A stretch of 64,000 bases of DNA from Dehalococcoidia bacterium (GTDB lineage Bacteria; Chloroflexota; Dehalococcoidia; SM23-28-2): contig DAOUEZ010000033.1 in the NCBI GenBank assembly GCA_034429995.1, positions 22,294 through 86,293 of the forward strand, written 5' to 3'. Under the pieces are notes generated by a model. The model saw only the letters and a program-made list of their open reading frames with translations, made no database searches and was not told where the DNA came from. A program made the translations under genes and the position numbers. This document shows positions 11,535 through 63,604 of the stretch, one piece after another; positions within the stretch are counted from its first letter, which is position 1; every line of letters begins with the position of its first letter.

Positions 11535-11537
11535 TCT

Positions 11538-15174: not shown

Positions 15175-15175
15175 G

Positions 15176-16204: not shown

Positions 16205-16240
16205 GAGCATGGCGAATCCGCCGATGTCGAGGGGAGTTGC

Positions 16241-17257: not shown

Positions 17258-17267
17258 GAGCGAGACG

Positions 17268-18056
17268 ATGATCGCCATCGTCGCCGCCCTGGACACAGAG
17301 CTATCGGCCCTGGAAAGAAGGGCGAGGGTCAGGCGCTGGCCTTCGCCTGCTTGGCCACTCATCGGCGAAGGGACGCTCGCCGGAAGGCAAGTCCTGCTGG
17401 TGCGGACGGGGATGGGCTCTGCCCGCGCGCAGGAGGCCACCGCCGTCCTGATACAGCGCCACAATCCAGAGGCTATCCTGTCGATTGGTTTCGCTGGCTC
17501 CCTGGTGGACGGACTTCGGGCGGGCCATCTAGTCATCGCCCGCCAGGTATATGTCCTCTCGGAACCCCTCCATGGGGGACCGCTGGCGGTGTCCAATGGG
17601 CTAGCCTGCGACCCTGCACTGGTGGCATTGGCCCTGGCGGCGGCTGGACAAAGGAGACTGGCCTTCCGCGAGGGCGCATCTCTCACCGTCCCCCAGGTGG
17701 TCAGCCAGCCCGAAGTCAAGGTGCGAATTGGAGACAGTTTGCCAGTCGAGGTGGTGGAGATGGAGAGCTATTGGGTGAGCCGCGTTGCCGCCGACCAGGG
17801 CATTCCCTTCTTGGTTGCGCGAGCCGTCCTGGATGAAGTTGGCGACCGTCTGCCTGACCTGCCCAACATAGTCGACGAGGCTGGAGCGGTCGCCAAGGGT
17901 CGAGCCTTGCGCCAACTCCTCTCGCGACCACGGGAGGCACCAGGCCTCATCCGCCTGGCCGCCAGCGCCCGTCGGGCAAGCCAGAGGCTAGCCGTCTTCG
18001 CTGAAGCCTTTGTGGACGTCCTCGCCGCTTCGCGTTCGCTCGGGAGGCACCAATGA
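17268..18056 (+). CDS. hpnG: Hopanoid-associated nucleoside phosphorylase/nucleosidase HpnG.
   Basis: PNP/MTAN-fold-like 'MIAIVAALDTELSAL...' N-terminus. Sits between hpnH and shc, as in known hopanoid side-chain loci. Confidence 0.6.
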   Translation: MIAIVAALDTELSALERRARVRRWPSPAWPLIGEGTLAGRQVLLVRTGMGSARAQEATAVLIQRHNPEAILSIGFAGSLVDGLRAGHLVIARQVYVLSEPLHGGPLAVSNGLACDPALVALALAAAGQRRLAFREGASLTVPQVVSQPEVKVRIGDSLPVEVVEMESYWVSRVAADQGIPFLVARAVLDEVGDRLPDLPNIVDEAGAVAKGRALRQLLSRPREAPGLIRLAASARRASQRLAVFAEAFVDVLAASRSLGRHQ

Positions 18057-19972: not shown

Positions 19973-20097
19973 GAACCTTTCTCTTGCCAATCATCGCGCC
20001 TGGGAGTAGCATGGGGCTGCCCCGATTGTTAGGACTATCAACCTCCCGGCCATGGGAAACAGGCAGGAAATATCCAACTAAGGAGGCTGATGCAGCC

Positions 20098-21396
20098 GTG
20101 TGGAAGCTAAGTAAATTCTGGCCGATGTTCCTTGCCCTGGCAGCGCTCTTGCTGGTGATGCTAGCAGTGGCTTGCGAGGAGGAAGAAGAGGAGGGAGCTC
20201 CTACTGGCACACCTACCGCTACCGTGACCGGCACTCCTACCGCCGCAGCGGAGGCGCCGGGCATCACAGACACAGAGATAATCCTGGGAGCGGATGTCAT
20301 CCTCGCCGGGGCCATGGGGGCGGTCTACGCCACGATCCCCCAGACCACGGAAGCCTACTTCAACTACATCAACGACACCCAGGGAGGCGTCTGCGGGCGC
20401 AAGATCGTCTATAAGCTGGAGGACAACCAGGACGACCCGGCCAAGGCCATCGAGGCGGTGCGCAAGCTGGTGGAGCAGCACAAGGTGTTCGCCATCGTCG
20501 GTTCCTTGGGCGACGCTCCCCACTCCGCCGTTTGGGAGTATCTGAACGAAAATGAGGTGCCCGACATCTTGTGCTCCGCCGGGTGTCACATGTACAGCGC
20601 CGACCCCGAGGGGCACCCCTGGACGGTCCAGATGATCCCCGGCTACCGGATGGAGGGGACGTTCTTCGCCCAGTACATCTCCGAAAACCTGCACGGCAAG
20701 AAGGTGGCCGTCCTCTACCCGAATCTCATGATGGGCACCGACCTCCTGCAAGGGGTGAAGGACGGCCTGGACCCCGACAAGAACGAGATCGTCTCCGAGC
20801 AGATCTACGAGATCACGGCGGTCTCCATTGCCTCCCAGGTGAGCAACATGAAGAACGACGGCGCTGAGGTGGTCGTCACCAATGCCACCCCCGGCTTCAG
20901 CGCTCAGGCCATTAAGCAGGCCGACCGCCTGGGCTGGCATCCCGAGTGGTTCCTGAGCTACATCAATGCCGACGAAATGATGTTTCAGTTCGTTTCGCCT
21001 GAGCTCCTGGAGGGTGCCATTACCCTCCAGGCCCTCAAGCTGGCGGCCTGGACCGACGACCCGGCTGTAGCTCGACACTATGAGATCATGGATCAGTACG
21101 GCGGGCCTACGCCCACCAACTTCACCATCTATGCCCAAGTGCTGGCGGAAGTGGCGGTGGAGGTGCTCAGCAGGTCCTGCGATAACCTCACGCGAGAGGG
21201 GCTCATGGATGCGCTGGAGTCGATTAAGGACTTTCACAGCGACTTGTTCATAGACGAAGTGAATGTCTCCTTCTCCGACACCGACCACGCGGCCTTTCAA
21301 ACCGCCAGGATGCTGCGGGCCGCCGTAGAGGATGGGAAGGGTAAGTGGGAGTACTTCGGCCCGCTACTTGAGTTCGAAGAGAAAGCGCTGGAATAA
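20098..21396 (+). CDS. ABC transporter substrate-binding lipoprotein of the Leu/Ile/Val-binding type (Peripla_BP_6). Paralog of 60921..62222.
   Basis: GTG start preceded by aggagg. 'KFWPMFLALAALLLVMLAVAC' lipoprotein signal, then an acidic EEEEEE linker. ~80% amino-acid identity to the second copy. Confidence 0.65.
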   Translation: MWKLSKFWPMFLALAALLLVMLAVACEEEEEEGAPTGTPTATVTGTPTAAAEAPGITDTEIILGADVILAGAMGAVYATIPQTTEAYFNYINDTQGGVCGRKIVYKLEDNQDDPAKAIEAVRKLVEQHKVFAIVGSLGDAPHSAVWEYLNENEVPDILCSAGCHMYSADPEGHPWTVQMIPGYRMEGTFFAQYISENLHGKKVAVLYPNLMMGTDLLQGVKDGLDPDKNEIVSEQIYEITAVSIASQVSNMKNDGAEVVVTNATPGFSAQAIKQADRLGWHPEWFLSYINADEMMFQFVSPELLEGAITLQALKLAAWTDDPAVARHYEIMDQYGGPTPTNFTIYAQVLAEVAVEVLSRSCDNLTREGLMDALESIKDFHSDLFIDEVNVSFSDTDHAAFQTARMLRAAVEDGKGKWEYFGPLLEFEEKALE

Positions 21397-21428
21397 GGTC
21401 AGCGGCGCCTGTGCGCGTGCTGCCAACC

Positions 21429-33668: not shown

Positions 33669-34895
<1,227 letters not shown>

Positions 34896-34909
34896 CGGCT
34901 GGTAGCTCG

Positions 34910-36283
34910 TTACTCGCCCAGGCGGCGGTTGTAGTTCTCTATGATGTCATTGGCTTCGGCCGCCGCGTCAGCGAGGGCCTCGATGGGGTCTTTGGACCCG
35001 ACCACCGTCTCCTCGATAGCGGTAGCGACAACCTCTCGCACGTCCCTGATGGGGCCGAGGAGCGGGCCGAGGGACTCCTGAGTCGATGGCGTCTCCAGGA
35101 CAAGGTCGACGGGGACACGGAACTGCGGGTACTCGGCCACGACGTTCTGTGCCGCCGGCAGGTCGTAGGCAGAGATTCGCACCGGCAGGAGGCCAGTGCC
35201 AGCGTACCATTCGGCCTGCTGTTCCGGTTCCAAAAGCCACTTGATGAACTTCCAGGCTGCCTCCTGCTCCGCCTCGGGGCGTCCCTTCAGGATCCAGAGG
35301 CCCCGGCTGTACACCCCCGGCAAGCCTGTCCCGCCGGGAACGCCGGGCTGACCGACCACCCCCAATTCCACGTTCATGCCCCCGCGCTCCAGAACATCCA
35401 CCACCGAACGCAGGGCTTGTGAGCTGGCGAAACTCATAGCGGCCCGGCCGACTCCCATCGACAGGAGAGCAGCGTCGCCGCCGGGGTTGCGACCAACGTT
35501 GAGGGCTGACCCGTCCTTGACCATTTCGTGCCACCAGCGGAAGAAGGCCTGCCCTGTCGGACTGTCGAAGAGGACCTCCGTGGCTCGTCCCTGGCGGCCG
35601 TTGCTGTTGTTCACATAGAAGTCGCCGTGCTCGGCCACGGTCAGTTCGACGTACCAGGGGTCGATGTCAAGGGCGATGCCGCTGCGGAGGAGGTTGCCGT
35701 GGGCGTCCCGCTTTACCAGCTTCTGGGAGAATTCTCGCACCTCCTCCAGATCCCTGGGTGGCTGCTCGGGATCGAGCCCCACCTCGCTGAAATCCAGCTT
35801 ATTGTAGTAGAGCAAGGGGACGGCAATGGAGAAGGGCATCCCGTGGAGCTGGCCGTCCACGGTGTAATACTGTATGGCCTTCTCATCGAAGTCGGAAAGG
35901 TCGTAGTCCTCACCATCGATGAACTCCTGCACCGGCCTTGCGGCCCCGCTGTCCATGACTCTCTGGGCATCGACCTCGGCCAGATAGATGAGGGCTGGCA
36001 CGTCCCCCGAACCGAGGGAGGCGATGAACTTGAGCATCGTTTCCTCGTCGTTTCCCTGGAAGGCCATCTTGACCTCAACCTCGTCCTGCTCGGAGTTGAA
36101 GCGGCGTGCCAGTCCCTGGATGGTGTCCAGGTTGCTGGCCACCTCCGAGTGCCAGAAGCTAATCTCCACCGTCCCCGCCGCCGGTGTCGCACTGCCTTCT
36201 GGCTCTCCTTCCTCCTCGCCACCACAGGCGGCCACGCTTACTCCAACAATGAGCAGCATCAGGAAGATCAGAGCCTTCTTCAT
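34910..36283 (-). CDS. Carbohydrate ABC transporter substrate-binding lipoprotein (SBP family 1). Paralog of 59336..60709.
   Basis: 'MKKALIFLMLLIVGVSVAACGG' lipobox. SBP_bac_1-like. Last gene before galK in the operon. Confidence 0.8.
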   Translation of the reverse strand: MKKALIFLMLLIVGVSVAACGGEEEGEPEGSATPAAGTVEISFWHSEVASNLDTIQGLARRFNSEQDEVEVKMAFQGNDEETMLKFIASLGSGDVPALIYLAEVDAQRVMDSGAARPVQEFIDGEDYDLSDFDEKAIQYYTVDGQLHGMPFSIAVPLLYYNKLDFSEVGLDPEQPPRDLEEVREFSQKLVKRDAHGNLLRSGIALDIDPWYVELTVAEHGDFYVNNSNGRQGRATEVLFDSPTGQAFFRWWHEMVKDGSALNVGRNPGGDAALLSMGVGRAAMSFASSQALRSVVDVLERGGMNVELGVVGQPGVPGGTGLPGVYSRGLWILKGRPEAEQEAAWKFIKWLLEPEQQAEWYAGTGLLPVRISAYDLPAAQNVVAEYPQFRVPVDLVLETPSTQESLGPLLGPIRDVREVVATAIEETVVGSKDPIEALADAAAEANDIIENYNRRLGE

Positions 36284-36298
36284 GGCTATCCCTCCTCG

Positions 36299-37168
36299 TT
36301 AGCCTTTGAGAGCACCAGCGGTGAGGCCCCTCACCAGCTGGCGCTGGAACAGGACGAGCAAGATCAGTATTGGCAGCGCCGAGATCACTGTCGCTGCCAT
36401 GGTTATATTGAACGTGTCGACCTCTCGGCCGCGCAGAGCGGCCAGACCGATCTGTACCGTGCGCATGCTGTCCTCGTTGGTCACCAGCAACGGCCACAGG
36501 TACTGGTTCCAGGCCTGAAGGAAGCCGAACACGGCCAGCGCGGCCAGCACCGGCCGTGAAAGGGGCAGCACCACGAAAGTGAGGAAGCGAATGTGACCGT
36601 AGCCGTCGATGGCGGCAGCGTCCCGCAGTTCTTGAGGGATGGTGAGGAAGTGCTGTCGCAGCAGGAATGTACCCAGGCCGGTGGCCAAGAAGGGCACGGT
36701 CAGCGCCTGGTAGGAATCCAGCCAGCCGAGCCACCGAATGGTCTGGAAATTGGGAACGATGGAGACCTCCCAGGGCACCATGAGGGTGGAGAGGAAGAGG
36801 ACGAACAGGAAGGTTCGGCCGGGGAAGCGGAGGAAGGCAAAGGCGTAGGCGGCGAGGGCGGAGGTAACCAGCTGGCCAACCACGATGACGCCAGCCATGA
36901 TAAGGCTGTTCAACATGTACCTCATGAGGGGCACTTCATCCAGCGCCTTTTTGAAGTTGCCCCACTGCGGATCGAAGGGGAACAGCTCGGGCGGCCAGGC
37001 AATGATGGTCGTTGACGATAGCAGGCTGTTGACCACCGTCATGTAAATGGGAAAGACGACTATGCCTCCCACCACTATCAGAACGGCATAACGCAAGGCG
37101 TAGCTCGCCCAGCGCCGATAGCGCTCGACCCCTCGTTTCCTTGCGGGCGTTGCTATGTCCACGCTCAT
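36299..37168 (-). CDS. Carbohydrate ABC transporter permease (MalG-like).
   Basis: Six TM segments. EAA-like loop 'AAIDGYGHIRFLTFVVLP'. Confidence 0.8.
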   Translation of the reverse strand: MSVDIATPARKRGVERYRRWASYALRYAVLIVVGGIVVFPIYMTVVNSLLSSTTIIAWPPELFPFDPQWGNFKKALDEVPLMRYMLNSLIMAGVIVVGQLVTSALAAYAFAFLRFPGRTFLFVLFLSTLMVPWEVSIVPNFQTIRWLGWLDSYQALTVPFLATGLGTFLLRQHFLTIPQELRDAAAIDGYGHIRFLTFVVLPLSRPVLAALAVFGFLQAWNQYLWPLLVTNEDSMRTVQIGLAALRGREVDTFNITMAATVISALPILILLVLFQRQLVRGLTAGALKG

Positions 37169-39365: not shown

Positions 39366-39446
39366 ACGCCGAGAGTCTGACCGGCGACGAGGCTCGCGAC
39401 GCCGAGGCCTGAGAAGAGGTCGGTGTTAGCGATGTGCTGGGCTGTG

Positions 39447-39583
39447 GGATCTGGAGGGCCGGGTGGGATTCGAACCCACGACTCCCAGCTTGTCAATCAG
39501 GACGTTGTTAGGCAATCAAGGCCGGCCCAAACAGCTCACCGCGTCAACCCTCCGGAGACGCACGACATTCTGGCACCCCACAG
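39447..39583 (-). repeat. Copy A of a four-member conserved noncoding element family. The minus-strand 3' end forms a tRNA-like T-arm and 7-bp acceptor ending CCA, but the body does not fold as a canonical tRNA.
   Basis: Minus strand reads '...GTGGGTTCGAATCCCACCCGGCCCTCCA'; 5' partner 'GGGCCGG' is present. Shares 'TTGTCAATCAGGRCG', 'GGCYRGCCCARAYAGCTSAS...GTCAACYCT' and 'TGGCACCCCACAG' blocks with copies C and D. Immediately 3' of the GT-C/PA14 gene. Confidence 0.5.
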
Positions 39584-39606
39584 CCCTCGGCGGAACCGCC
39601 GACGGC

Positions 39607-42477
39607 TTAACCGGGCCGCAGGAACTGATTTCCGAGCGTCTCCAGCTCCACCCCCGGCCGCTCCCATGCTAAGAACACCCGGGAGAACCACGTCCTCCCC
39701 ACGTACTGCACCTCGATGTCGTGCAGCCCCTCCTCCAGCCGCACACCCCCCTCCGCGACACCTGCTTTTTCCACACTCACCACCTTGCTCCCGTCGATGA
39801 TCAATGTTGACTCGTCGATGGAGTCCAGCCGGAAGCGATACTGCCCACTGCTCGGCGCTAGCAGCTTCCCTGTCCAGCGAACGCTGAAGGGCTCGGGCAA
39901 CGGCGGGTCATAAAAACGGTATGCCACAAATGGGTCGATCTGCTCCAGCACTGGCTGCCCCGACAGCCCCGCTCCCTGATAGTAGCGCCCGAGCAATCCT
40001 GCCGCTGTCACTGGTGGGCCGAACAGAGCCGAGGCCGGCACCGCTCCCCACGGCACCGACTGGCTGCTCCAGTATAACCGTACCCGTCCAAGCTCCTCGA
40101 TTTGTGCCGCCACCTCCAAGTCATGGATGCCCCGCGCCAGACTGCCCCGCCATTCGGCCCGGCCCGTCCCCTCGGCTAGGAGCTGCCCGTCCAGCAGAAG
40201 TCGTGCCCTCCCTGGCGCCTCCACCCCCAGTGCGTACTCCTCGAACCCGGGCACCTTCAATACCCCTGACCACGTTGCCGAGAATGGAGGCTCCAGCGGC
40301 GCCTGTTCCGACCAGTCGAAGTCCACCGTCGCCGCCCGCTCCTCGACCTCTTCCCCTCGATCCGCCATCGACACGTACCTTGCGTCCAGCCCCTGCGCTC
40401 TCCGCACGGCGCCGGCTTCGATGATGGCTTCATACACCGTCGCCAATCCCTCCTGGGCCGACACCTTCGGCGGTCGAAACTCCTGAAGTTGCGCCGTCGG
40501 GTAGTACTGGCTCAGCAGACGGAACGTCTCCCAGGCTTCCCAGTCGAGCAGGAAGACGGTAGGCTGCTCCCCACCGATGGGCACATCCTTCACCAGCTCC
40601 AACGCCTTTGCCCGCTCCGGTTCGTCCGCCACGAACAGCAGCGTTGGGTGCCCCGTCATCATCGGCGATATTAAGAACTGATATGTGTCCCCCAGGCGGT
40701 TCATCTCCTTCGCTGCAATGGTCTGTTCAGGTGAGAAGCAGGCCCACACCGCCGTGTCCTCTAACTGCTTGTTGAAGAAGGTATCGTAATTCCGCTCCGC
40801 TACCAGCGAGAGCAGCGCCAGCAGCCCCACCACCGTCCCCCCCAGTAGGATCAGCCCCACTGACCGACTCCGCAGTGTTGTCAGCGCCAACCCTGGCAGA
40901 CGCCAGCCATGTCCGTCCAGCGTCGCTGCCTCCTCCTGCGCCCGCTGCTCCGACGCCAGACGCCATGCCAGCCACAATGGCACCGCCGCCGCCAGCGCCA
41001 CTCCCGGCGTCACCAACAGCGACCGCACCGCATGCGGTGCCTCGGTCTCGGCCGTCCCGATCCCAGCCCAGAGCGGGACCGCCACCCACAGCAGGATCAA
41101 GAAGTAGCCCGGCCGCCGGACATTGTACAGGCTGATGCCCAGCCCGAGCACAAAGGCGATCCCGGTGAACGTGTCTAACATCGGCGCCCACGGCAGATTG
41201 TGCCGACCGTTTCGGTCACCCTCTGCGTTGAACATGAGCGCGTGCCTCTTCGTGTTGCGCAGCAGCGCTTCGACGGTCTCGACGGTCGAATTCCCCTCGG
41301 TGATCGAGACCGCGCTCGCCCGCTCCGTGAACTCCGACGGATGCTGCGTCGCCCAGGCTGCGACGGGCGAAAAGGCCGCGAAGGCCGCCAGTGCCAGCAG
41401 CGCCATCCCGATGAAGGAACGGCGCAGCTTCACCGCCCGCTGGAAGATAGCTGTGTGCGCCCAATACAGCACCATGATGACGGGCACCAAGTACACCGCC
41501 CAATAGAATTGCAGCCCCAGCCCCAACAGGAGACCCGAAGCCAGGAAGTTCGGCCAACTGCCCCGCTTCAGCCCCCGCACAAGGAAGTACATGCTCGCGA
41601 CCACGAACAGCGGTGAGAAGATGGGCTCCGTAGCGATGCGGCTGAAGTTGACGTGCCAGCGCATCACGGCAAACAGGAACGTGGCTATGCCAGCGAGCCG
41701 AGTATCGAAAAGCTCCCGCGCCAGCAAGAACACGAAGGGGATCGTCAGGATCGCTCCCACCGTCGTCGCCGCCCGCAGGGACAGGATGTGCCGCCCGAAG
41801 AACTGTATTGCCCCGGCGAAAACGTACAGTGGCAGCGCCGCCCGATTGGCTCCCCAGACTCCTGTGATGAATACCGGGCGATAGCTGCTGTCGTCCAGGA
41901 TCCGCTCGGCAATGATCCCGTTCTCCGCCTCGTCTAGCCACACCCCGAAGGGATGGCTCGACAGCAGGTATGTCCGAAAGGCAATTCCGAGCCCCAGTGC
42001 CACGAAGAGCAGCCAGTATCGCCCGACGAGGCCCCACGCCCGCTCGACCAGCGGCAGCCTCGGATACAGATGCGAAACATGTGCGATAGGGCTTGCTCTC
42101 GGAGCCTCGGCCTCTGAGAAGTGGTGCCCCGCAATCGCTGCGATCGCCAACCCCGTCGCGATCGCGAATAGAATTAACCCCTGGCGCAAGTCCTCGGCGC
42201 CCTCTGTCGCCGCCTGCGCCAAGTACCCCACGCCGAAAGCCGACGCTAGCACCAGCAGCCGGACAGGAAAGCCCACAGGCGAACCCACCAGCCGTACGGC
42301 CGGGCCCCAGCTCTGACCCGAAAGACTGCCGCCTTGGCCGAAATAGCGAGGGCGTCTCATCGACTGTCCCGCTCCATGCTCGCCGCCCTCGACGTACCGT
42401 CCCTCCAAAATTCCGGCAGGGCCGCCGGGCGGCCCACTGGTTCTGGAATTTGTGCGCTTCGCAGTTTTCGTGACCAC
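39607..42477 (-). CDS. Polytopic membrane GT-C fold glycosyltransferase (ArnT/PMT GT39/GT83-like) with a large C-terminal extracytoplasmic region containing tandem PA14 domains.
   Basis: DE motif 'WLDEAENGIIAERIL' in the first extracytoplasmic loop. More than 10 predicted TM helices. C-terminal 'GLLGRYYQGAGLSGQPV...FSVRWTGKLLAPSSGQYRF...IDG...ERPG' matches PA14 domains. Candidate promoter TTGACA-N17-TACTGT 60 nt upstream supports ATG 42477. Confidence 0.6.
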   Translation of the reverse strand: MVTKTAKRTNSRTSGPPGGPAGILEGRYVEGGEHGAGQSMRRPRYFGQGGSLSGQSWGPAVRLVGSPVGFPVRLLVLASAFGVGYLAQAATEGAEDLRQGLILFAIATGLAIAAIAGHHFSEAEAPRASPIAHVSHLYPRLPLVERAWGLVGRYWLLFVALGLGIAFRTYLLSSHPFGVWLDEAENGIIAERILDDSSYRPVFITGVWGANRAALPLYVFAGAIQFFGRHILSLRAATTVGAILTIPFVFLLARELFDTRLAGIATFLFAVMRWHVNFSRIATEPIFSPLFVVASMYFLVRGLKRGSWPNFLASGLLLGLGLQFYWAVYLVPVIMVLYWAHTAIFQRAVKLRRSFIGMALLALAAFAAFSPVAAWATQHPSEFTERASAVSITEGNSTVETVEALLRNTKRHALMFNAEGDRNGRHNLPWAPMLDTFTGIAFVLGLGISLYNVRRPGYFLILLWVAVPLWAGIGTAETEAPHAVRSLLVTPGVALAAAVPLWLAWRLASEQRAQEEAATLDGHGWRLPGLALTTLRSRSVGLILLGGTVVGLLALLSLVAERNYDTFFNKQLEDTAVWACFSPEQTIAAKEMNRLGDTYQFLISPMMTGHPTLLFVADEPERAKALELVKDVPIGGEQPTVFLLDWEAWETFRLLSQYYPTAQLQEFRPPKVSAQEGLATVYEAIIEAGAVRRAQGLDARYVSMADRGEEVEERAATVDFDWSEQAPLEPPFSATWSGVLKVPGFEEYALGVEAPGRARLLLDGQLLAEGTGRAEWRGSLARGIHDLEVAAQIEELGRVRLYWSSQSVPWGAVPASALFGPPVTAAGLLGRYYQGAGLSGQPVLEQIDPFVAYRFYDPPLPEPFSVRWTGKLLAPSSGQYRFRLDSIDESTLIIDGSKVVSVEKAGVAEGGVRLEEGLHDIEVQYVGRTWFSRVFLAWERPGVELETLGNQFLRPG

Positions 42478-42543
42478 AGGAGAGGCAGAGCGACCGTCCC
42501 TCCCCCCCAGCCAAGCCAGAAGTCGCCCACGGAGATGGCTAAA

Positions 42544-42571
42544 CAGTAACTGGCAGGGGGCAGGTTGTCAA
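42544..42571 (-). promoter_or_regulatory. Candidate sigma70-like promoter (minus strand TTGACA-N17-TACTGT) for the GT-C/PA14 gene.
   Basis: Minus-strand 'TTGACAACCTGCCCCCTGCCAGTTACTGT', 60-90 nt upstream of ATG 42477. Confidence 0.35.
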
Positions 42572-42597
42572 AGGAGCGCTGCTGAACGGAAACGCCT

Positions 42598-42720
42598 CCC
42601 GAGGGGCCCTTTTCCGTATCTGGAGTCTGGAGGGTCGGGGGGGATTCGAACCGACGACTCCTGCATTGAGAGTCAGGAGTTCTTTCGCTGAGTTAGCAAC
42701 TCAACGGCATCAACCGTCGC
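42598..42720 (-). repeat. Copy B of the conserved noncoding element family (tRNA-like T-arm/acceptor-CCA at the minus-strand 3' end). Shares a 3' tail with copy D. Ends in a 6-bp hairpin 'CTCCTG...CAGGAG'.
   Basis: Minus strand '...GGAGTCGTCGGTTCGAATCCCCCCCGACCCTCCAGACTCCAGATACGGAAAAGGGCCCC'. ~40-nt block nearly identical to copy A ('GGAGTCGTGGGTTCGAATCCCACCCGGCCCTCCAGA'). Confidence 0.5.
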
Positions 42721-43007
42721 CAGTGGGGACACGAGATGATGTAGCACTCGACCAAGCGAGCCCCGACGACCTGCTTGGAGGGAAGAAGGTCACCCCGAAA
42801 CGCAGGCCTAATTGTTAACCCCTTAGATTCAAAAATCGGGATGGATTTCGAGGGCATGCGGCCGGCGGCGGCCGAACCCTCACCCCAGGCGCTCGCCCAT
42901 CCGGTCCGCCGGGCTTAACCGCACCATGCGCTGCTTATTCCCCTTGCCATGGCGAACCTGAATGCGCTGGCTCTCGAAGTCTACGTCCTTGAGTCGAAGG
43001 CTGTCGC

Positions 43008-50715: not shown

Positions 50716-51174
50716 AACGGCCTCCTGCTCAAACGCTTATGAACACCTTCCCGTCGCCATTGACATCACCCACAGCCACTGACCGCCCAAAGTAGGCGTC
50801 TACCTGGGGGTTAGGGATATCCTAAGTGAAGATTGGGCTATGATTCCAATCCCAATGCATTGCTCCATGGACGTCTCTGTGAGATCTCCTCATCGGAAGA
50901 GAGCAAACCTAGCATGAAGGAATCGACACACTACGCTTTCACGTGGAGAGAGCGGCTGAGCGGTCTTATCAAGGCAGCGAGCCGGGCAAGATCGTTCATG
51001 GTCCTGGATTCGACTTATGAGTCATAGGCAAGAATAGCACATTAGGACAGAGGCCGGGTTTGCAGATGTCGACAACATTCGCTGCACGACATTAGCGCCG
51101 GAGCCAAACAGGTAGAGAGCCTGCCTCAGAAGCAGAAAATCATCGGTCGGCGATCAGTGCCGTCAGGCGACCCG

Positions 51175-51299
51175 GATTGTCAATCAGGACGTGCTGGCCA
51201 GATGGATCATGCGGGCGGGTACCCCACAGCCTCGTGGCTAGCCCAAATAGCTCAGCACGTCAACCCTCCAGATATGGCTAACATTTTGGCACCCCACAG
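51175..51299 (-). repeat. Copy C of the conserved noncoding element family; lacks the tRNA-like T-arm portion. Sits at the edge of a low-GC island.
   Basis: Contains 'ttgtcaatcaggacg', 'ggctagcccaaatagctcagcacgtcaaccctcc' and 'ttggcaccccacag' blocks shared with A and D. Confidence 0.45.
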
Positions 51300-51334: not shown

Positions 51335-51988
51335 ATGCATGCTTATTATCCAGAGTCGAAGGTTGAAGTCACCGGGTTTATAGCAAAACATTATGATCTA
51401 GTAATGGATATTATAACGTTGGGTAAGTATTCTTCTTTCATACGAAAAGCTGTTCGATTAATGGCAATTAGGCCAGATGATAAAATTCTTGATTTAGGGG
51501 CAGGGACAGGTAGGAATGCCTGTTTGATGATGAGATATCTTTCTGCAAGAGGAGAATTGGTAGCACTTGATATCTCTGAAGAGATGATTTCGCAATTCAA
51601 AAAGAATTGCGGCCATTTTTCCAATGCTGCAATCATCAATAAGAGGATCGACCAGGATCTAAGCTATGAAGGGTATTTTGAGAAGGTTTTTATTTCTTTT
51701 GTGTTGCATGGATTTCCTCAGGAGGCTAGGGACCAGATTATTAGGAATGCCTTTAAGGCATTAAAAAAGGATGGGACATTTTTTATCCTGGACTACAATG
51801 AATTTTCGCTAAAAGAAATGCCTTTCTATCTAAGGATTCCTTTTAAACTCATAGAGTGCCCTTACGCGTTTGATTTTATCGAAAAAGATTGGAAAGAGCT
51901 ATTGTCCTCGCAAGGGTTCAGCAATTTTAGGGAGCATCCCTTCTTCGGCGGTTATGGACGATTGCTTAGCGGGGTAAAATCGATATGA
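51335..51988 (+). CDS. Class I SAM-dependent methyltransferase, encoded in a low-GC (~40%) island.
   Basis: 'ILDLGAGTGRNA' motif I. AT-rich codon usage contrasts with the rest of the window. Confidence 0.65.
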   Translation: MHAYYPESKVEVTGFIAKHYDLVMDIITLGKYSSFIRKAVRLMAIRPDDKILDLGAGTGRNACLMMRYLSARGELVALDISEEMISQFKKNCGHFSNAAIINKRIDQDLSYEGYFEKVFISFVLHGFPQEARDQIIRNAFKALKKDGTFFILDYNEFSLKEMPFYLRIPFKLIECPYAFDFIEKDWKELLSSQGFSNFREHPFFGGYGRLLSGVKSI

Positions 51989-52485
51989 TAGAGCAACTGA
52001 GCTTTAAGTTGAAGCGGATTGGGGTCATTCGCACCCCGTATATAGACAACGCACCATATCAGCCGCTGGATGAAGCCAAAGGAGATTTCCGTGTAGTCGT
52101 TGATTCCCAATATGCGGACGGGCTTTATAAGCTTGCGAAATTCCATTATATCTACGTCATCTATTACATACACCACATTGTGCGAAGATTGTCAATGATT
52201 GTATCTCCTCCATGGGCCGGCGGTGCGAGGGTTGGCCTGTTTGCAAGCAGGTCACCAGTCCGCCCAAATCCCATTGGTCTTAGCGTTGTTCGCATAAAAT
52301 CCATTGTAAATAACGAAATCCACACATCAGGCTTGGACGTGTTTGATGGAACCCCGCTTCTTGATATCAAACCCTACATAAACGATCTGGATTCCAAATG
52401 TGATGCCAATTATGGCTGGATTGAAGAGATGGATGACAAGGAACATCTCCTTTTACATATCAAGGGTATTCCTCATGACTACTGA
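51985..52485 (+). CDS. TsaA/TrmO (YaeB, UPF0066)-like SAM-dependent methyltransferase domain protein.
   Basis: 'IGVIRTPY', 'FHYIYVIYY', 'GLFASRSPVRPNPIGLSVVRI' and 'DGTPLLDIKPYI' match TsaA family motifs. ATGA overlap with the upstream methyltransferase. Confidence 0.65.
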   Translation: MIEQLSFKLKRIGVIRTPYIDNAPYQPLDEAKGDFRVVVDSQYADGLYKLAKFHYIYVIYYIHHIVRRLSMIVSPPWAGGARVGLFASRSPVRPNPIGLSVVRIKSIVNNEIHTSGLDVFDGTPLLDIKPYINDLDSKCDANYGWIEEMDDKEHLLLHIKGIPHDY

Positions 52486-52681
52486 GATAATGCAGATGAG
52501 AGCAACTTCATATAACGGCGAGTATGCGGTTCGCTTACGCTCGGTCAAGTCCCGGAAGTTGTTGAAATTGGTTGAAGGGCGGCTCCCCTCCAGATACGAT
52601 TCATGTCCTGCGCGACAGCAGCAAAGATGCGCAGGACCGATGTGGGTGGTCAGCAACTTTCGGAATCTGTATAAGCAGTTC

Positions 52682-53623
52682 CTAATGGACACCTGGAGGC
52701 TTGCTCTTGCTCCCCAGGAGGCGATAGCGTATCGCCCAAGGGAAAGGAGCAGGCAATGCCACAGGAACGTCCTCCAGGGGATAGTCGGAGCCGGGCCACC
52801 AGAACTGAAGCTCATCGAGCGTATCGCCGAACTTCTCCGTTACGAAATCGAGATCAGGCCTGGGACCACAGAAATGGGTTGTAACCGGCACATCGCGGCC
52901 CATCACCTCTCTGACCCTCTCTTTGATCCTCTCCAGGCCCTCCATCTCCAGCCGGGCTATCTCCTCCTTGAACTCCGGGAGGGCGAGGTCCTTATCCAGG
53001 CTGGCGAAACCGTAGTTGATATTCGTTAGCCTGTCTTTCCAGGGCTCAAGGCTGCCCAAGTAATAATCTACGGTCCAATCCATCATCACTCTTTCTACCG
53101 CCCCGAAGACGGCTTCCGGAAAGAGGATCAGGTCCCTCAGGGCCTCTTTTACTCCCACTAGGAGGGCAAGGTTGGACACCGGCCCATAGCCTCCCTGCCT
53201 GAAGGCGACTTTGTCGCCGATTTCGTCGGAAACGATCTCGGAGGCCTTGGCCAGCACTTTGGCTCTCTCTCCTGCGAAGGGGTCGCGATATTCGAGCTCC
53301 TCGTAGACCTTCGGGTCGGGCCTCGTGCGGTCGGCGAGCGTCTTCTTGGGGTAGATGAGGCTGTCAGTGATGTAGACCTCCACCCCGTACGGCTCCAACG
53401 CCCACCACAGGTCGGAGTTCACCACGGACACGTCCGTCTTGTACTTCTGCACGTACCTGATGTGGCCAAGGGCTATCTTATCTGGATCGAAAGCAAACTG
53501 GCGCATGGAAACGCCCGACAGAGCCAGAGCCAGGTCAACCGACCAGTGCAGGAGCGGCACCTTGTCGGGCGTCTCTCCATGCAGATAGCACAGTAACCTT
53601 TCTGCCCCCGTCATCTCAGCCAT
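52682..53623 (-). CDS. URO-D-fold MtaA-like methyltransferase homolog. 313 aa (somewhat short); possibly decayed.
   Basis: 'ERLLCYLHGETPDKVPL' N-terminus resembles MtaA-like enzymes at 28650 and 29888. The opposite-strand ORF 52400..53029 was judged spurious. Confidence 0.4.
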   Translation of the reverse strand: MAEMTGAERLLCYLHGETPDKVPLLHWSVDLALALSGVSMRQFAFDPDKIALGHIRYVQKYKTDVSVVNSDLWWALEPYGVEVYITDSLIYPKKTLADRTRPDPKVYEELEYRDPFAGERAKVLAKASEIVSDEIGDKVAFRQGGYGPVSNLALLVGVKEALRDLILFPEAVFGAVERVMMDWTVDYYLGSLEPWKDRLTNINYGFASLDKDLALPEFKEEIARLEMEGLERIKERVREVMGRDVPVTTHFCGPRPDLDFVTEKFGDTLDELQFWWPGSDYPLEDVPVALPAPFPWAIRYRLLGSKSKPPGVH

Positions 53624-59104: not shown

Positions 59105-59335
59105 CCCGACGGGGCGTGCTTGTGCCTGTCGGCGAGGGCCAGAGCGTCACGCCTCGGGGCAGGGTAACACGTGCGCTATCGCATAGGAAGGGAGAGCTGA
59201 GATGAAGGCCGCGTGTTTTGCTCGGTCATTCGGGAGGGTTTGGGCTGTGGGCGCGTCAGCCGTCTCTGCTCCCCGGGCGGGCGGTGTGCCCATCGTCCGG
59301 ACCCACTGCGGCGACGTTCACGGGCTGGTGGCTCG

Positions 59336-60709
59336 CTACTCGCCCAGGCGGCGGTTGTAGTTCTCTATGATGTCGTTGGCTTCGGCGGCTGCATCGTCGA
59401 GGGCCTCGATGGGGTCTTTCGAACCCACCACCGTCTCCTCCATAGCGGTGGCGACGACCTCTCGCACGTCCCTCATAGGGCCAAGAAGCGGGCCGAGAGA
59501 CTCTTGGGTCGATGGCGTCTCCAGGAAGAGGTCAACGGGGAGGCGAAAGAGCGGATACTCAGCTATGGCGTTCTCGGCCGCCGGCAGGTCGTAGGCAGAG
59601 ACTCGCACTGGTAGGTACCCGCTGCCAGCGAACCATTCGGCCTGCTGCTCGGGTTCCAGAAGCCACTTGATGAACTCCCAGGCCGCCTCCTGCTCCCCCT
59701 CGGGACGGCCCTTCAGGATCCAGAGGCTCCGGCCGTATACTCCCGGCAAGCCTGTCCCGCCGGGGACGCCGGGCAGACCGACCACCCCCGGCTCCACGTT
59801 CAGTCCCCCGCGCTCCAGAACGTCCACCACCGAACGCAGGGCTGATGAGGCGCTCAAGCTCATAGTGGCTCGACCGGTTCCCATCGCCAGGAGGGCATCG
59901 GCATAACTGGGGTTACGACCGACGTTGATGGCTAGCCCCTCCTCAATCATTTCGTGCCACCAGCGGAAGAAGGCCTGCCCTGCTGGACCGTCGAAGAGAA
60001 CCTCGGTGGCTCGTCCCTGGCGGCCGTTGCTGTTGTTCACATAGAAGTCGCCGTGCTCCGCCAGGGCCACGTCAAGGTACCAAGGGTTGATGTCGAGGGC
60101 AACGCCAGCGCGGAGGATGTTGCCGTGGCTGTCCTGCTTCACCAGCTTTCGGGAAAATTCTCGCACCTCCTCCAGATCCTTGGGTGGCTGCTCGGGATCG
60201 AGCCCTACCTCGCTGAAATCCAGCTTGTTGTAGTAGAGCAAAGGGACGACAATGCCGAAGGGCATCCCGTAGAGCTGACCGTCCACGGTGTAGTACTGTA
60301 TCGACTTCTCATCGAAGTCGGAAAGGTCGTAGTCCTCACGGTCGATGAACTCCTGCACCGGCCTTGCGGCCCCGCTGTCGACGAGTTTCTGAGTGTCGAC
60401 CTCGGCCAGATAGATGAGGGCTGGCACGTCCCCCGAGCTCAGAAAGGCCGTGAGCTTGAGCATCGTTTCCTCGTCGTTTCCCTGGAAAGCCATCTTGACC
60501 TTAACCTCGTCCTGCTCGGAGTTGAAACGGCGTGCCAGTCCCTGGATGGCATCCAGGTTGCTGGCCACCTCGGAGTGCCAGAAGCTGATCTCCACCGGCC
60601 CCGCCGCCGGTGTCGCACTGCCTTCTGGCTCTGCTTCCTCCTCACCACCACAGGTGGCCACGCTTGCTGCAACAATGAGCAGCATCAGGAAAATCAGAGC
60701 CTTCTTCAT
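59336..60709 (-). CDS. Second copy of the carbohydrate ABC substrate-binding lipoprotein; no adjacent permeases or ATPase.
   Basis: Same length and near-identical N-terminus ('MKKALIFLMLLIVAASVATCGG') as 34910..36283; ~85-90% amino-acid identity. DNA ~90% identical to copy 1 from ~59270 to ~60908. Confidence 0.8.
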   Translation of the reverse strand: MKKALIFLMLLIVAASVATCGGEEEAEPEGSATPAAGPVEISFWHSEVASNLDAIQGLARRFNSEQDEVKVKMAFQGNDEETMLKLTAFLSSGDVPALIYLAEVDTQKLVDSGAARPVQEFIDREDYDLSDFDEKSIQYYTVDGQLYGMPFGIVVPLLYYNKLDFSEVGLDPEQPPKDLEEVREFSRKLVKQDSHGNILRAGVALDINPWYLDVALAEHGDFYVNNSNGRQGRATEVLFDGPAGQAFFRWWHEMIEEGLAINVGRNPSYADALLAMGTGRATMSLSASSALRSVVDVLERGGLNVEPGVVGLPGVPGGTGLPGVYGRSLWILKGRPEGEQEAAWEFIKWLLEPEQQAEWFAGSGYLPVRVSAYDLPAAENAIAEYPLFRLPVDLFLETPSTQESLGPLLGPMRDVREVVATAMEETVVGSKDPIEALDDAAAEANDIIENYNRRLGE

Positions 60710-60724
60710 GGCTATCCCTCCGCT

Positions 60725-60949
60725 CTAGCCCTTGAGGGCACCAGCGGTGAAGCCCCTCACCAGCTGGCGCTGGAACAGGACGAGCAAGATCAGTATTGGC
60801 AGCGCCGAGATGACTGTCGCTGCCATGGTTATATTGAACGTGTCGACCTCGCGACCGCGCAGAGCGGCCAGACCGATCTGCACCGTGCGCATGTTGTCCT
60901 CGTTGGTCACTGCGCCCGCCTTATTCCAGTTCCTGCTCCTCGAACACAA
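60725..60949 (-). pseudogene. 3'-terminal remnant (C-terminal ~65 aa) of a MalG-like permease gene, duplicated from 36299..36520.
   Basis: 'VTNEDNMRTVQIGLAALRGREVDTFNITMAATVISALPILILLVLFQRQLVRGFTAGALKG' is nearly identical to the C-terminus of 36299..37168. Homology stops abruptly at ~60908, where the Liv-type SBP 3' end begins. Confidence 0.6.
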
Positions 60950-62222
60950 GTAGTGGGCCGAAGTACTCCCACCTGCCCTTCCCGTCCTCCACGACAGCCC
61001 TCAGCATCCTGCCGTCCTCCAGGCCCCTGTGGTCAGTGTCGGAGAAGGAGACATTCACTTCGTCTATGAACAAGTCGCTGTGAAAGTCCTTAATCGACTC
61101 CAGGGCGTCCATGAGCCCCTCTCGCGTCAGGTTATCGCAGGTTCTGCTGAGGGCCTCCACTGCCACTTCTGCCACCGTCTGGGCATAGACGGTGAAGTTG
61201 GTGGGGCTGGGCCCGCCGTACTCGCGCATGAGCCGGTAGTGCTCGGCCACGGCCGGCTCGTCAGTCCAGGCCGCCAGCTTGAGGGCCTGGAGGCTAATGG
61301 TACCTTCCAGGAGCTCAGGCGAGACGAACTGAAACATCATTTCGTCGGAATTGTTGTAGCTCAGCATCCACTGGGGATGCCAGCCCAGGCGGTCGGCCTG
61401 TTTGATGGCCTGAGAGGTGAAGCCGGGAGTGGCGACGGTAGTGACCACCTCAGCGCCGGAGTTCTTCATGTTGGTGACTTGGGAGCTGATGGAGACCGCC
61501 GCGAACTCGAAGCTCTGCTCGGAGACGATCTCGTTCTTGTCCGGGTCCAGGCCGTCCTTCACACCTTGCAGGTGGTCGAAGCCCAGGGTGATGTTCGGAT
61601 AGAGGACGGCCACCTTCTTACCAGGCAGGTTCTCAGAGATGTACTGGCCGAAGAATACCCCCTCGATCCCGCAACTGGGGATCATCTGGACCGTCCAGGG
61701 GTGCCCCTCGGGGTCGGTGCCGAACATGTGAGACCCGGCGGACAGCAGGATGTCGGGCACTTCATTTTCGTTCAGGTAGTCCCAAGTGGCGGGATGGGTT
61801 TCATCTCCCAAGGAGCCAACCATGGCGAACACCTTGTCCTGCTCCACCAGCTTCCGCACGACCTCCATGGCCTTAGCCGGGTCGTCGTTGTTGTCCTCCA
61901 CCTTGTAGACGATCTTGCGCCCGCAGACGCCCCCCTGGGTGTCGTTGATGTAGTTGAAGTAGGCTCCTGTGGCCTTGGGAATCGTGGCGTAGACCGCCCC
62001 CATGGCACCGCTAAGGGGTACATCGGCTCCCAGGAGTATCTCTGTGTCCGTGATGCCCGGCACCTCTGCCACGGCGGTAGGAGTAGCGGCCGCCGTGGCT
62101 GTGAGCGTGCCGCCAGGGGTAGGTGTCGCCTCCTCTTCTTCATCTCCGCAGGCCACTGCCAGTACCAGCAGCAGCGCTGCTAGGGCTAGGAAGATCGGCC
62201 AGAATTTGCCTAGCCTCCGCAC
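60921..62222 (-). CDS. Second copy of the Leu/Ile/Val-type ABC substrate-binding lipoprotein.
   Basis: 'MRRLGKFWPIFLALAALLLVLAVAC' + acidic linker. ~80% identity to 20098..21396 over the full length. Confidence 0.7.
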   Translation of the reverse strand: MRRLGKFWPIFLALAALLLVLAVACGDEEEEATPTPGGTLTATAAATPTAVAEVPGITDTEILLGADVPLSGAMGAVYATIPKATGAYFNYINDTQGGVCGRKIVYKVEDNNDDPAKAMEVVRKLVEQDKVFAMVGSLGDETHPATWDYLNENEVPDILLSAGSHMFGTDPEGHPWTVQMIPSCGIEGVFFGQYISENLPGKKVAVLYPNITLGFDHLQGVKDGLDPDKNEIVSEQSFEFAAVSISSQVTNMKNSGAEVVTTVATPGFTSQAIKQADRLGWHPQWMLSYNNSDEMMFQFVSPELLEGTISLQALKLAAWTDEPAVAEHYRLMREYGGPSPTNFTVYAQTVAEVAVEALSRTCDNLTREGLMDALESIKDFHSDLFIDEVNVSFSDTDHRGLEDGRMLRAVVEDGKGRWEYFGPLLVFEEQELE

Positions 62223-62410
62223 GGCTGCATCAGCCCCCTTTCTTCATCCCCTTGTTCTCAGCATGCTGGACAGTCGAGTTAGCCCCATCCTACTCACAGG
62301 CGCGAGGGTTGGCAAGGACGTAGGGATGTCCAGCTGCGCCGCTATTCGCCCTGGATCGACTGGCGGGACCGGCCTAGGCGTCTCGTTAGCAAACGGCAAG
62401 CAAATGATAA

Positions 62411-62620
62411 GGCCCCCAAGGAGGAACGCACCGTGAGGGGGCCTTTTCCGTATCTAGAGCCTGGAGAGCGGGATGGGTTTCGAACGCGTCACTGCCGAAT
62501 TGTCAATCAGGGCGTGATGGCCGCAGGGACCCCGTGGGCGGTAGCCCGCAGCCTCAAGGCTGGCCCAGATACCTGAGCCTGTCAACTCTTCAGATACAGA
62601 TGAGGTCTTGGCACGCGGCG
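62411..62620 (-). repeat. Copy D of the conserved noncoding element family, including a stable GC hairpin (62411-62446, 'GGCCCCC...GGGGGCC' + TTTT on the plus strand) and a degenerate T-arm/acceptor-CCA.
   Basis: Minus strand '...GTGACGCGTTCGAAACCCATCCCGCTCTCCAGGCTCTAGATACGGAAAAGGCCCCC' is shared with copy B. Core 'ttgtcaatcagggcg' and the 'ggctggcccagatacctgagcctgtcaactct' block are shared with A and C. Confidence 0.45.
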
Positions 62621-63394: not shown

Positions 63395-63604
63395 CTAAAC
63401 ATCGAAGTAAAGATAGAACTCCCACGGGTGGGGGCGCAGCCGCACGGGGTCCAGCTCGTGCTGTCGCTTGTACTCCAGCCAGACCTCCAGGACATCGCTG
63501 GTGAACACGCCGTCCTTCAGAAGGAACTCGTGGCCCTCTTCTAGGGCACGCAGGGCTTCCTCCAGCGAGCCGGGGACGGTGGCGATGGTGCACTTTGGAC
63601 GCCT
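63395..63604 (-). pseudogene. C-terminal remnant (~55 aa) of a glutamine synthetase (GlnA) gene, without start or upstream body.
   Basis: Minus-frame translation '...IATVPGSLEEALRALEEGHEFLLKDGVFTSDVLEVWLEYKRQHELDPVRLRPHPWEFYLYFDV*' matches the conserved GS-I C-terminus (VPGSLEEAL...DHEFL...GVFT...W...K...PHPxEFxLYxDV). In-frame TAG ~70 codons upstream. An MFS gene on the opposite strand begins at 63678. Confidence 0.5.

Follow-up and report, generated by a model that had tools for sequence, protein, structure and literature searches.

Repeat units carrying a tRNA-Lys 3' end around a glycosyltransferase gene in Dehalococcoidia: possible scars of site-specific recombination

Genomic islands and prophages located in tRNA genes reportedly fall into sublocation classes, among them one with crossover in the anticodon loop, a division said to have been drawn up by Williams in 2002. 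In Dehalococcoides, which belongs to the same class as the bacterium studied here, tandem genomic islands at ssrA are delimited by repeated 3' ends of the tmRNA gene, and a conserved, island-derived motif lies upstream of each repeat (McMurdie et al. 2011, PMC3146451). An integration module is missing from some of these islands, for which mobilization in cis was proposed (PMC3146451). A comparable family of repeats was found in a 64-kb stretch of Dehalococcoidia DNA (the window, meaning the whole stretch analysed), where two copies, A and B, bracket a single gene:

39607..42360, minus strand: gene for a GT-C-type glycosyltransferase (PMT_2) with two C-terminal PA14 stretches, 917 aa from ATG 42360
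39439..39586, minus strand: copy A, a repeat unit with outer inverted repeat, 5' arm, pseudo-acceptor, hairpin and tRNA-Lys block; the outer inverted repeat is 10 bp long and perfect, GGGCTGTGGG(G)/CCCACAGCCC
39543-39576, minus strand: 5' arm of copy A
39520-39528, minus strand: pseudo-acceptor GGGCCGG of copy A
39483-39503, minus strand: hairpin of copy A
39452..39486, minus strand: tRNA-Lys-identical block of copy A, 35/35 against positions 41-75 of tRNA-Lys(UUU)
42588..42749, minus strand: copy B, the most diverged of the copies
42700-42749, minus strand: weakly recognisable 5' arm of copy B
42658-42679, minus strand: degenerate hairpin of copy B
42628-42661, minus strand: tRNA-Lys-like block of copy B, 31/34 against tRNA-Lys
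42588-42627, minus strand: tail of copy B, with CTCCAGA duplicated and then AGATACGG and a hairpin

The bracketing of the gene by direct repeats, already noticed in a sequence-only reading of this DNA, was confirmed, as both copies are present and both lie on the minus strand. The distances given there had to be revised. Copy A had been placed 10 nt past the stop codon, and with the outer inverted repeat included the gap is 20 nt (TAA at 39607-39609, 5' end of A at 39586). Copy B had been placed about 120 nt before the start; its CCA end (42628) lies 150 nt from GTG 42477, to which the longest open reading frame extends, and 267 nt from ATG 42360 or 351 nt from GTG 42276, the two starts used in JGI annotations.

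The block shared by A and B had been taken for a tRNA 3' end of about 40 nt. It is indeed the 3' end of tRNA-Lys(UUU): a genuine tRNA-Lys(UUU) was called by ARAGORN in a related metagenome (locus L138), and this tRNA matches A at 35/35 (E 4e-15) and B at 31/34 positions (E 2.5e-7). It is also identical to the copies at loci L122, L124 and L125 over 40 nt and to that at L136 over 49 nt. In copy A the block covers the variable loop, T arm, 3' acceptor strand, discriminator and CCA. The near-identity of the core was upheld (GGAGTCGTSGGTTCGAATCCC..CCGRCCCTCCA, 31/34 identical in a 34-nt block); the limit of 40 nt was not, the units being about 150 nt long. A repeat search aligned 39445-39502 with 42621-42678 (58 nt, 79% identity, direct orientation). 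The 12-mer GGTTCGAATCCC has only two sites in the 64 kb, those of A and B, which is weak when taken alone (0.38 expected by chance, at least two occurrences in 5/100 shuffles). It is the match to tRNA-Lys, not the 12-mer count, that decisively settles the reality of the two blocks. A and B are not tRNA genes. Rfam tRNA-clan matches to copy A do not exceed 18 bits (gathering score 47), and ARAGORN called no tRNA in the window, in L122-L125, L036, L136 and L145 or in the 6.7 kb beyond copy D. The array is not headed by an intact tRNA-Lys, and a tRNA-Lys 5' half is absent.

Only two copies had been recognised before. Two more lie on the same strand, accompanied by possible remnants:

51171..51299, minus strand: copy C, with full 5' arm and hairpin; after AATCCGGG it has a different right arm and no tRNA 3' end
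51045-51090: possible decayed tRNA 3' end near copy C
52586..52606, minus strand: solo 5'-arm motif ACATGAATCGTATCTGGAGGG, 21 nt, at the far edge of a low-GC cassette abutting C (tentative, E 0.41)
62423..62614, minus strand: copy D, full length; its tRNA-like 3' part has decayed, and its tail holds AGATACGG and a terminator-like hairpin

The window thus holds at least four copies (39-63 kb), all on one strand and spread over 23 kb. Units measure 150-210 nt, and further copies occur in a few related Dehalococcoidia contigs, the family being restricted to one Dehalococcoidia lineage. A 14-base pattern gave 120 matches in genome contigs, mostly by chance as the pattern is too short, of which L036 alone is real, and a 23-base pattern gave four loci in metagenome contigs and no match in viral contigs. 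Translation of the element in four frames against a protein database led, through three matches, to L136, L137 and the genuine tRNA-Lys in L138. By blastn the family arm was absent from phages and plasmids, where the matches were ordinary tRNAs only. No literature on tRNA-like repeats in Dehalococcoidia was found.

Each unit starts with a non-tRNA 5' arm, followed by a hairpin resembling an anticodon arm, then by the tRNA-Lys 3' end and last by a tail with an inverted copy of an arm motif. The conserved arm is about 100-130 nt long. The imperfect hairpin CCTGA-TTGACAA-TCCGG mimics an anticodon arm (5-7-5 symmetry), and the genuine tRNA-Lys(UUU) 3' end begins at its last two loop bases (AATCCGG...); the core sequence of the sites is CCTGATTGACAATCCGG. 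An inner inverted repeat pairs the arm motif CCGTATCTGGAGGG with CCCTCCAG..AGATACGG in the tail, and an outer one has the form GTGGGG.. / ..CCCCAC. About 40 nt present in C, D and L122 are deleted from the interior of copy A. The 5'-arm homology of copy B is rated as probable only, because a profile built without B fails to detect the arm. Copy D is orthologous to the copies of L124/L125, which have an intact 3' part. Copy A, the distal one, is pristine, whereas B, an internal one, is decayed. A, B and D each follow a co-oriented gene at a distance of 20-250 nt, and terminator-like hairpins follow B, D and L122. Other segmental duplications in the window show 85-89% identity.

The sequence-only reading had explained A and B as attR and attL, left when a single integration of a one-gene glycosyltransferase cassette duplicated the tRNA-like site. 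This is improbable, even though two tRNA 3' ends in direct orientation enclose a single, accessory-looking gene and a circularised segment would rebuild a complete unit from the tail of B and the 5' arm of A. Over their 3' 56 nt, A and B share 77% identity, compared with 93-95% between A and copies from other metagenomes; A is thus nearer to these than to B, and the two are no matched attL/attR pair. Both carry the non-tRNA arm, neither contains an intact tRNA, and they are two of four same-strand copies. No intact target tRNA, empty site or recombinase was found either. What survives of the earlier idea is the tRNA origin of the block, the bracketing of one gene by direct repeats, the accessory look of that gene and junction-like behaviour at a tRNA anticodon arm, not the creation of A and B by one insertion.

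The gene itself looks like an accessory gene. Its nearest homologues outside the species show 44-46% identity, with none above 46%, whereas the adjacent FrhB has dozens of relatives at 82-92%. Its codon usage, which the sequence-only reading had proposed to compare with that of the neighbours, is the most atypical among the long genes (distance 0.232, others 0.08-0.16), whereas GC and GC3 are typical. Comparison of orthologous loci, suggested as a check, did not yield an empty site with a single element. Every same-species contig that reaches the locus carries the gene, and relatives with an FrhB 87-91% identical have other genes downstream and neither elements nor glycosyltransferase nearby, so that they offer no comparable site for an empty-site test. 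Lying between two att-like sites, the accessory-looking glycosyltransferase gene is a candidate cis-mobilizable cassette.

The earlier statement that no integrase lies nearby holds for the whole window and for 6.7 kb past its right end. A Pfam scan of essentially all open reading frames of at least 180 aa in the window detected no integrase, resolvase or transposase, and neither did the same scan of the 6.7 kb beyond and of the flanks of the other copies. The search for a cognate recombinase elsewhere, proposed at the outset, thus gave none at any copy-bearing locus, and a DsiB-type serine recombinase module was not found anywhere examined.

A recombination origin is suggested by where the parts of the units meet. 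All junctions lie in or beside the anticodon arm, at the common AATCCGG, and in no fewer than six independent loci one and the same nucleotide marks the passage from the shared non-tRNA arm to the tRNA 3' end. Of the four arm combinations to be expected, three were seen: tRNA on the left and right (L138), arm on the left with tRNA on the right (A, B, D, L122 and L124), and arm on the left with another right arm (C, L137 and L063). The other right arms are mutually homologous, and that of C is homologous to spacer sequence of L137 and L138. The fourth junction type, a tRNA 5' half followed by AATCCGG and a non-tRNA right arm, was not seen. Partial tRNA-Lys copies beginning at position 26/27 are present in L136 and L138. 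The L036 copy continues into a tRNA-Gly 3' end, as expected at a native tRNA-Lys-tRNA-Gly cluster such as that of L138. Between loci the 3' ends are 93-96% identical and the 5' arms just 66-81%, and the 3' part is perfectly conserved across five loci. Synteny with L124/L125 stops exactly where the 3' end of the element lies, foreign DNA is present at copies, and a low-GC block of 1.2 kb (38-48% GC) abuts copy C.

Plain decay of duplicated or rearranged tRNA clusters into pseudo-tRNAs, with no dedicated recombination or transposition system, might be plausible given that the L137 and L138 tRNA clusters contain degenerate tRNA-Lys/Asn-like copies with common spacers and that the window has other segmental duplications. 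It would hardly produce an identical arm-tRNA junction in independent loci or intact copies that are identical between different genomes, and is regarded as a poor prospect.

The intact copies might also act as RNA. Transcribed in a 3'-UTR or between genes, they would mimic a tRNA and signal RNase P/Z processing or stabilisation, or else they would be small RNAs. The predicted fold of A, a 7-bp acceptor stem and a T arm inside a long closing stem, would be in line with this, as would the positions of A, B and D behind co-oriented genes, the terminator-like hairpins and the perfectly conserved 3' part. ARAGORN and Rfam, however, gave nothing above threshold (the best sub-threshold matches in Rfam 15 being Plastid-ycf2 at 21.9, mascRNA at 20.2 and tRNA-Sec at 18 bits), folding z-scores were weak (-1.25, -2.7 and -0.5), and the pseudo-acceptor is mismatched in L122 and L124. 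Variation between copies breaks pairs (83.6% of cells paired versus 83.0% in shuffles), with changes on both sides in one pair only, and covariation is absent. No sigma-70-like promoter was present at a sensible distance. A functional RNA is considered very unlikely. As individual candidates, tmRNA, two-piece tmRNA, Y-RNA-like (YrlA), tRNA-Sec, T-box and riboswitch were rejected, since neither Rfam nor ARAGORN supported them and the 5' sequences misfit. A sigma-70 promoter TTGACA...TCGAAT was rejected as well, its -10 hexamer being without the essential A at position 2.

Somewhat better placed, though still unlikely, is a MITE-like non-autonomous element with long imperfect terminal inverted repeats that captured a tRNA-Lys 3' end and whose transposase is encoded elsewhere. 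The inner and outer inverted repeats (the latter a perfect 10 bp in A), the unrelated intergenic contexts occupied by the copies in several genomes and the existence of internally deleted and truncated copies would all suit such an element. Against it, the ends of A, B, D, L122 and L124 show no recognisable target-site duplication, no filled/empty pair was found, and a transposase was not seen. All four window copies lie on one strand, clustered in 23 kb. Divergence is very uneven, the tRNA part being identical to a real tRNA and the arms 66-81% identical, and truncations and arm swaps fall at the anticodon-arm core, not at the element ends.

The best explanation, held tentatively and at slightly less than an even chance, is that the units are att-type scars of site-specific recombination at tRNA-Lys and the glycosyltransferase gene a possible cis-mobilizable cassette. 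Recombination within the tRNA-Lys anticodon arm would produce hybrid att-type junctions, the units, and accreting islands or cassettes would leave them behind, partly decayed and perhaps still usable in cis by a recombinase encoded elsewhere. A and B would then not have been made together by insertion of the gene between them. The observations comprise the copies with their anatomy and tRNA-Lys identity, the place of the junction, the arms that replace one another, and a lack both of covariation and of a recombinase; from these, a recombination origin and perhaps a continued ability to mobilise DNA may be proposed. Counted in favour of att-type scars were the same-strand copies, tRNA-Lys identity, shared junction, arm combinations and tRNA-Gly continuation in L036, further the uneven 3'/5' divergence, the end of synteny at the element, the low-GC block, the accessory gene and the element-free FrhB relatives, and finally the precedent from the same class, the Dehalococcoides ssrA islands (PMC3146451). 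Counted against them were the missing recombinase, an array without intact tRNA-Lys, the unseen fourth junction type and the unrelated contexts of the copies. The genes between copies are mostly ordinary metabolic ones of typical composition, a pristine distal A with a decayed internal B is the opposite of what simple accretion predicts, and the long arm and terminal inverted repeats also fit a transposon-like unit.

A bolder reading, which is doubtful, takes the units as the working ends of a cassette system with a recombinase acting in trans, or as a tRNA-Lys-derived non-autonomous mobile element. Sites of 150-210 nt would then bracket single metabolic genes or small blocks and permit excision, exchange and accretion without an integrase of their own, and ongoing use of the sites would account for a tRNA part that is perfectly conserved from genome to genome.

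If the units are recombination junctions, they would mark a plastic region in which an uncultured sediment lineage of Dehalococcoidia gains and shuffles accessory genes, here a cell-surface glycosyltransferase, a low-GC methyltransferase/TrmO pair and duplicated transporter genes, and the target would be tRNA-Lys as opposed to the ssrA site known from Dehalococcoides. A new molecular principle would be at hand only if the sites prove active without a linked recombinase. In practical terms, short-read assemblies break at the elements, which can also be misread as fragments of tRNAs or as small RNAs.

Of the known systems, bacterial MITEs share the length of 150-210 nt, the terminal inverted repeats, the intergenic location and the deleted variants, and differ from the present units in that these have no target-site duplication, a single orientation, an embedded exact tRNA 3' end and breakpoints at an internal core. 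As in cis-mobilizable elements (CIMEs) and accretion in ICE/IME biology, DNA without recombination or transfer genes is flanked by putative att-like sites, and the geometry fits, but the sites on either side of the glycosyltransferase gene differ strongly in sequence. Islands and prophages with anticodon-loop crossover resemble the units in a direct repeat running from the anticodon arm to the CCA end, matched here by the 5-7-5 hairpin and by the partial tRNA-Lys copies from position 26/27; unlike in those islands, an integrase was not found, the copies have an extra pseudo 5' half, and the DNA between them consists of single metabolic genes or ordinary operons. The ssrA islands of Dehalococcoides differ in the junction, which is in the T loop there and in the anticodon arm of tRNA-Lys(UUU) here, in the repeated part (20 bp versus 35-40 nt of tRNA), in the upstream sequence (15 nt versus an arm of about 100-130 nt), and in that the present array has neither an intact target gene at its head nor a detected DsiB-type module. 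With these islands, found in the same class, the array nevertheless shares same-orientation repeats of a tRNA-type 3' end over tens of kb, a conserved sequence directly upstream of the repeats and breaks of synteny at the repeats.

Two minus-strand repeats, copies A and B, flank a glycosyltransferase gene and were paired by a repeat search of the window (58 nt, 79% identity). With A and B as queries, blastn and nhmmer added two further copies, C and D, and found no family copy in the 1-39 kb part. The features are:

39445-39502, minus strand: copy A, segment matched in the repeat search
39607 to 42360 or 42477, minus strand: glycosyltransferase gene (2.75-2.87 kb), PMT_2 (GT-C type) with two PA14 stretches
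42621-42678, minus strand: copy B, segment matched in the repeat search
about 51171-51299, minus strand: copy C
62423-62614, minus strand: copy D

For comparison, four related metagenome loci (L122-L125) were found by a 23-base pattern, one real genome match (L036) lies in a Dehalococcoidia MAG, and three more loci (L136-L138) were reached through a protein-database search. In L138 (154-535), ARAGORN called a genuine tRNA-Lys(UUU) clustered with a tRNA-Gly(UCC), and a partial tRNA-Lys after them. The genuine tRNA-Lys reads GGGCCGG TA GCTC AGCGGTA GAGC T CCGGA CTTTTAA TCCGG GAGTC GTGGG TTCGAAT CCCAC CCGGCCC T CCA, and the family matches it as follows:

Copy A: tRNA-Lys positions 41-75, 35/35 identical
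Copy B: 31/34 identical
L122, L124, L125: positions 36-75, 40/40 identical
L136: positions 27-75, 49/49 identical

The block that a sequence-only reading had called tRNA-3'-end-like is therefore, in the literal sense, the 3' end of tRNA-Lys, exact in A. That reading's observation of two flanking repeats was correct (the core block common to A and B is 31/34 identical), and better founded than its author could know because of this exact match. Its distances need correction: A starts 20 nt past the stop codon, outer inverted repeat included, rather than 10 nt, and the CCA end of B lies 150 nt from the longest-ORF start, or 267 or 351 nt from the JGI-annotation starts, rather than about 120 nt.

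The full unit begins with a 5' arm, (C)TGTGGGGTGCCAAAATGTCATCCGTATCTGGAGGGTTGAC...GGGCCRGCC, and about 40 nt of variable middle sequence, missing from A. A hairpin (GTCCTGA-TTGACAA-TCCGGGA), the tRNA-like part (GAGTC GTGGG-TTCGAAT-CCCAC CCGGCCC T CCA) and a tail (0-14 nt, then AGATACGG) follow. Reverse-complementing the arm motif CCGTATCT gives the tail motif, so the unit has long-range inverted repeats; A has an extra outer pair, GGGCTGTGGG/CCCACAGCCC. Such transposon-like repeats would suit a MITE-like element with a captured tRNA end, an origin we consider unlikely.

The family's own left part meets the tRNA at the last two anticodon-loop bases (..TTGAC followed by AATCCGG..). Rightward of AATCCGG comes tRNA-Lys sequence in most copies; C, L137(i) and a further related locus, L063, instead carry a different right arm (..GCACNGATCGCC..CCGAT..TGCTTYTGAGGCAGG..) that is homologous among the three and also to spacer DNA in the tRNA cluster of L138. 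Three kinds of sequence occur leftward: the 5' half of the genuine tRNA in L138, the family arm, and, in L123, L036 and L136, other sequence. Of the four combinations that attB x attP exchange should yield, the compared copies thus show three and lack the fourth. In L036 (47-147), a tRNA-Lys variable loop runs on into the T arm and acceptor of tRNA-Gly, a chimera that deletion inside a native Lys-Gly cluster would give. In L137 (1-450), a truncated element, a tRNA-Asn-like pseudogene and a new element lie in tandem on one strand. This lineage appears to have rearrangement hot spots at its tRNA-Lys loci; that the family reflects undirected decay of tRNA-cluster duplications seems improbable to us.

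In the 3' 56 nt, A shares 93-95% identity with L122, L123 and L124 and only 77% with B, the most diverged copy. Judged by these identities, A and B are not products of one recent duplication, and the strict one-event attL/attR model proposed earlier has little probability. The 5' arms of different loci share 66-81% identity. D matches its orthologue L124, which carries the canonical tRNA-part sequence, at 94% in the arm and 80% in the tRNA part, so the tRNA part either stayed the same as the real tRNA or decayed, independently of the arm. Synteny between the window and L124 stops exactly at the 3' end of the element.

A functional tRNA-mimic RNA was also considered. Terminator-like hairpins 3' of B, D and L122 are compatible with transcription, which they do not demonstrate. 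ARAGORN called zero tRNAs in the window and Rfam gave no match at gathering score; sub-threshold matches of A to mascRNA and tRNA-Sec reflect only its acceptor and T-arm shape. Folding z-scores are weak (A -1.25, L122 -2.7, L125 -0.5). An 11-sequence alignment of hairpin and T arm had 83.6% of its cells paired versus 83.0% in shuffles, and just one pair changed on both sides; elsewhere, differing copies break the pair. Both results argue against such an RNA, and we rate it a poor candidate.

Outside its own species, homologues of the glycosyltransferase reach at most 46% identity, in contrast to the adjacent FrhB with its many homologues at 82-92%. In synonymous codon usage the glycosyltransferase gene deviates more than any other long gene (0.232 versus 0.08-0.16), although its GC and GC3 are typical. 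The same species (Dehalococcoidia MAG GCA_964608485.1) occurs in several estuarine or sediment metagenomes, and all same-species contigs reaching the locus have the gene. Three relatives with FrhB 87-91% identical carry different genes downstream and no family element within 10 kb, so synteny gives no comparable empty site in them. Logan contigs of several sequencing runs begin within the tRNA-Lys block of A (about 39480), and four others all stop exactly 197 nt past the stop codon of FrhB, some 60 nt short of B (about 42811); these ends look like assembly-graph branch points, from repeats or population variants.

A 1.2-kb low-GC block at 51335-52485 (38-48% versus about 61% background) encodes, on the plus strand, a SAM methyltransferase and a TrmO-like protein and is clearly foreign. 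One edge adjoins the 5' end of C and the other lies beside a tentative solo 21-nt arm-motif copy (52586-52606). A sequence of about 190 nt without Rfam match is kept at about 77-83% in three loci (window 52580-52770, minus strand; L125 4526-4700; L063 6700-6870), in each of them near a family element or such an element's hairpin. The window copy overlaps the final 88 nt of a URO-D ORF; the Pfam match of this gene ends at position 247 of the 346 in the model, which shows the gene to be truncated. Just downstream of D lie transporter-gene duplicates, 85-89% identical to genes elsewhere in the window: a solute-binding-protein gene (59307-60910 versus 34881-36484, 88.8%, direct) and a Peripla_BP_6 gene (60919-62240 versus 20080-21398, 85%, inverted). 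A 180-nt fragment at 63395-63573 is 81% identical to the 3' end of the glutamine synthetase gene that stands directly 5' of the family element in L122; upstream of the fragment this genome has no full glnA and an MFS transporter gene instead. At 10575-19972, this Dehalococcoidia genome has a hopanoid-type cluster (two squalene/phytoene synthases, amine oxidase, LytB, polyprenyl synthetase, radical-SAM protein with DUF3463, nucleoside phosphorylase-like protein, squalene-hopene cyclase).

We tentatively favour, at a little under an even chance, att-type junctions from site-specific recombination within the tRNA-Lys anticodon arm, which would now be scattered in one orientation over a plastic 23-kb region. 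The glycosyltransferase would then be a candidate cis-mobilizable cassette between two att-type sites. Integration at a tRNA-like site, as first proposed, would thus be right in kind and wrong in detail. Several points weigh against att-type junctions: no intact tRNA heads the array, ordinary metabolic genes make up much of the cargo, B is decayed whereas A is pristine, and the unit has its inverted repeats. A further point against them is that, as noted earlier, no integrase is nearby, and no recombinase or transposase domain was found in the window, in the 6.7 kb past D, or near the other copies. The nearest precedent comes from Dehalococcoides, whose tandem ssrA islands are bounded by ssrA 3'-end repeats with a conserved island-derived motif ahead of every repeat; some of these islands have no integration module, and it was suggested that they are cis-mobilizable (PMC3146451).
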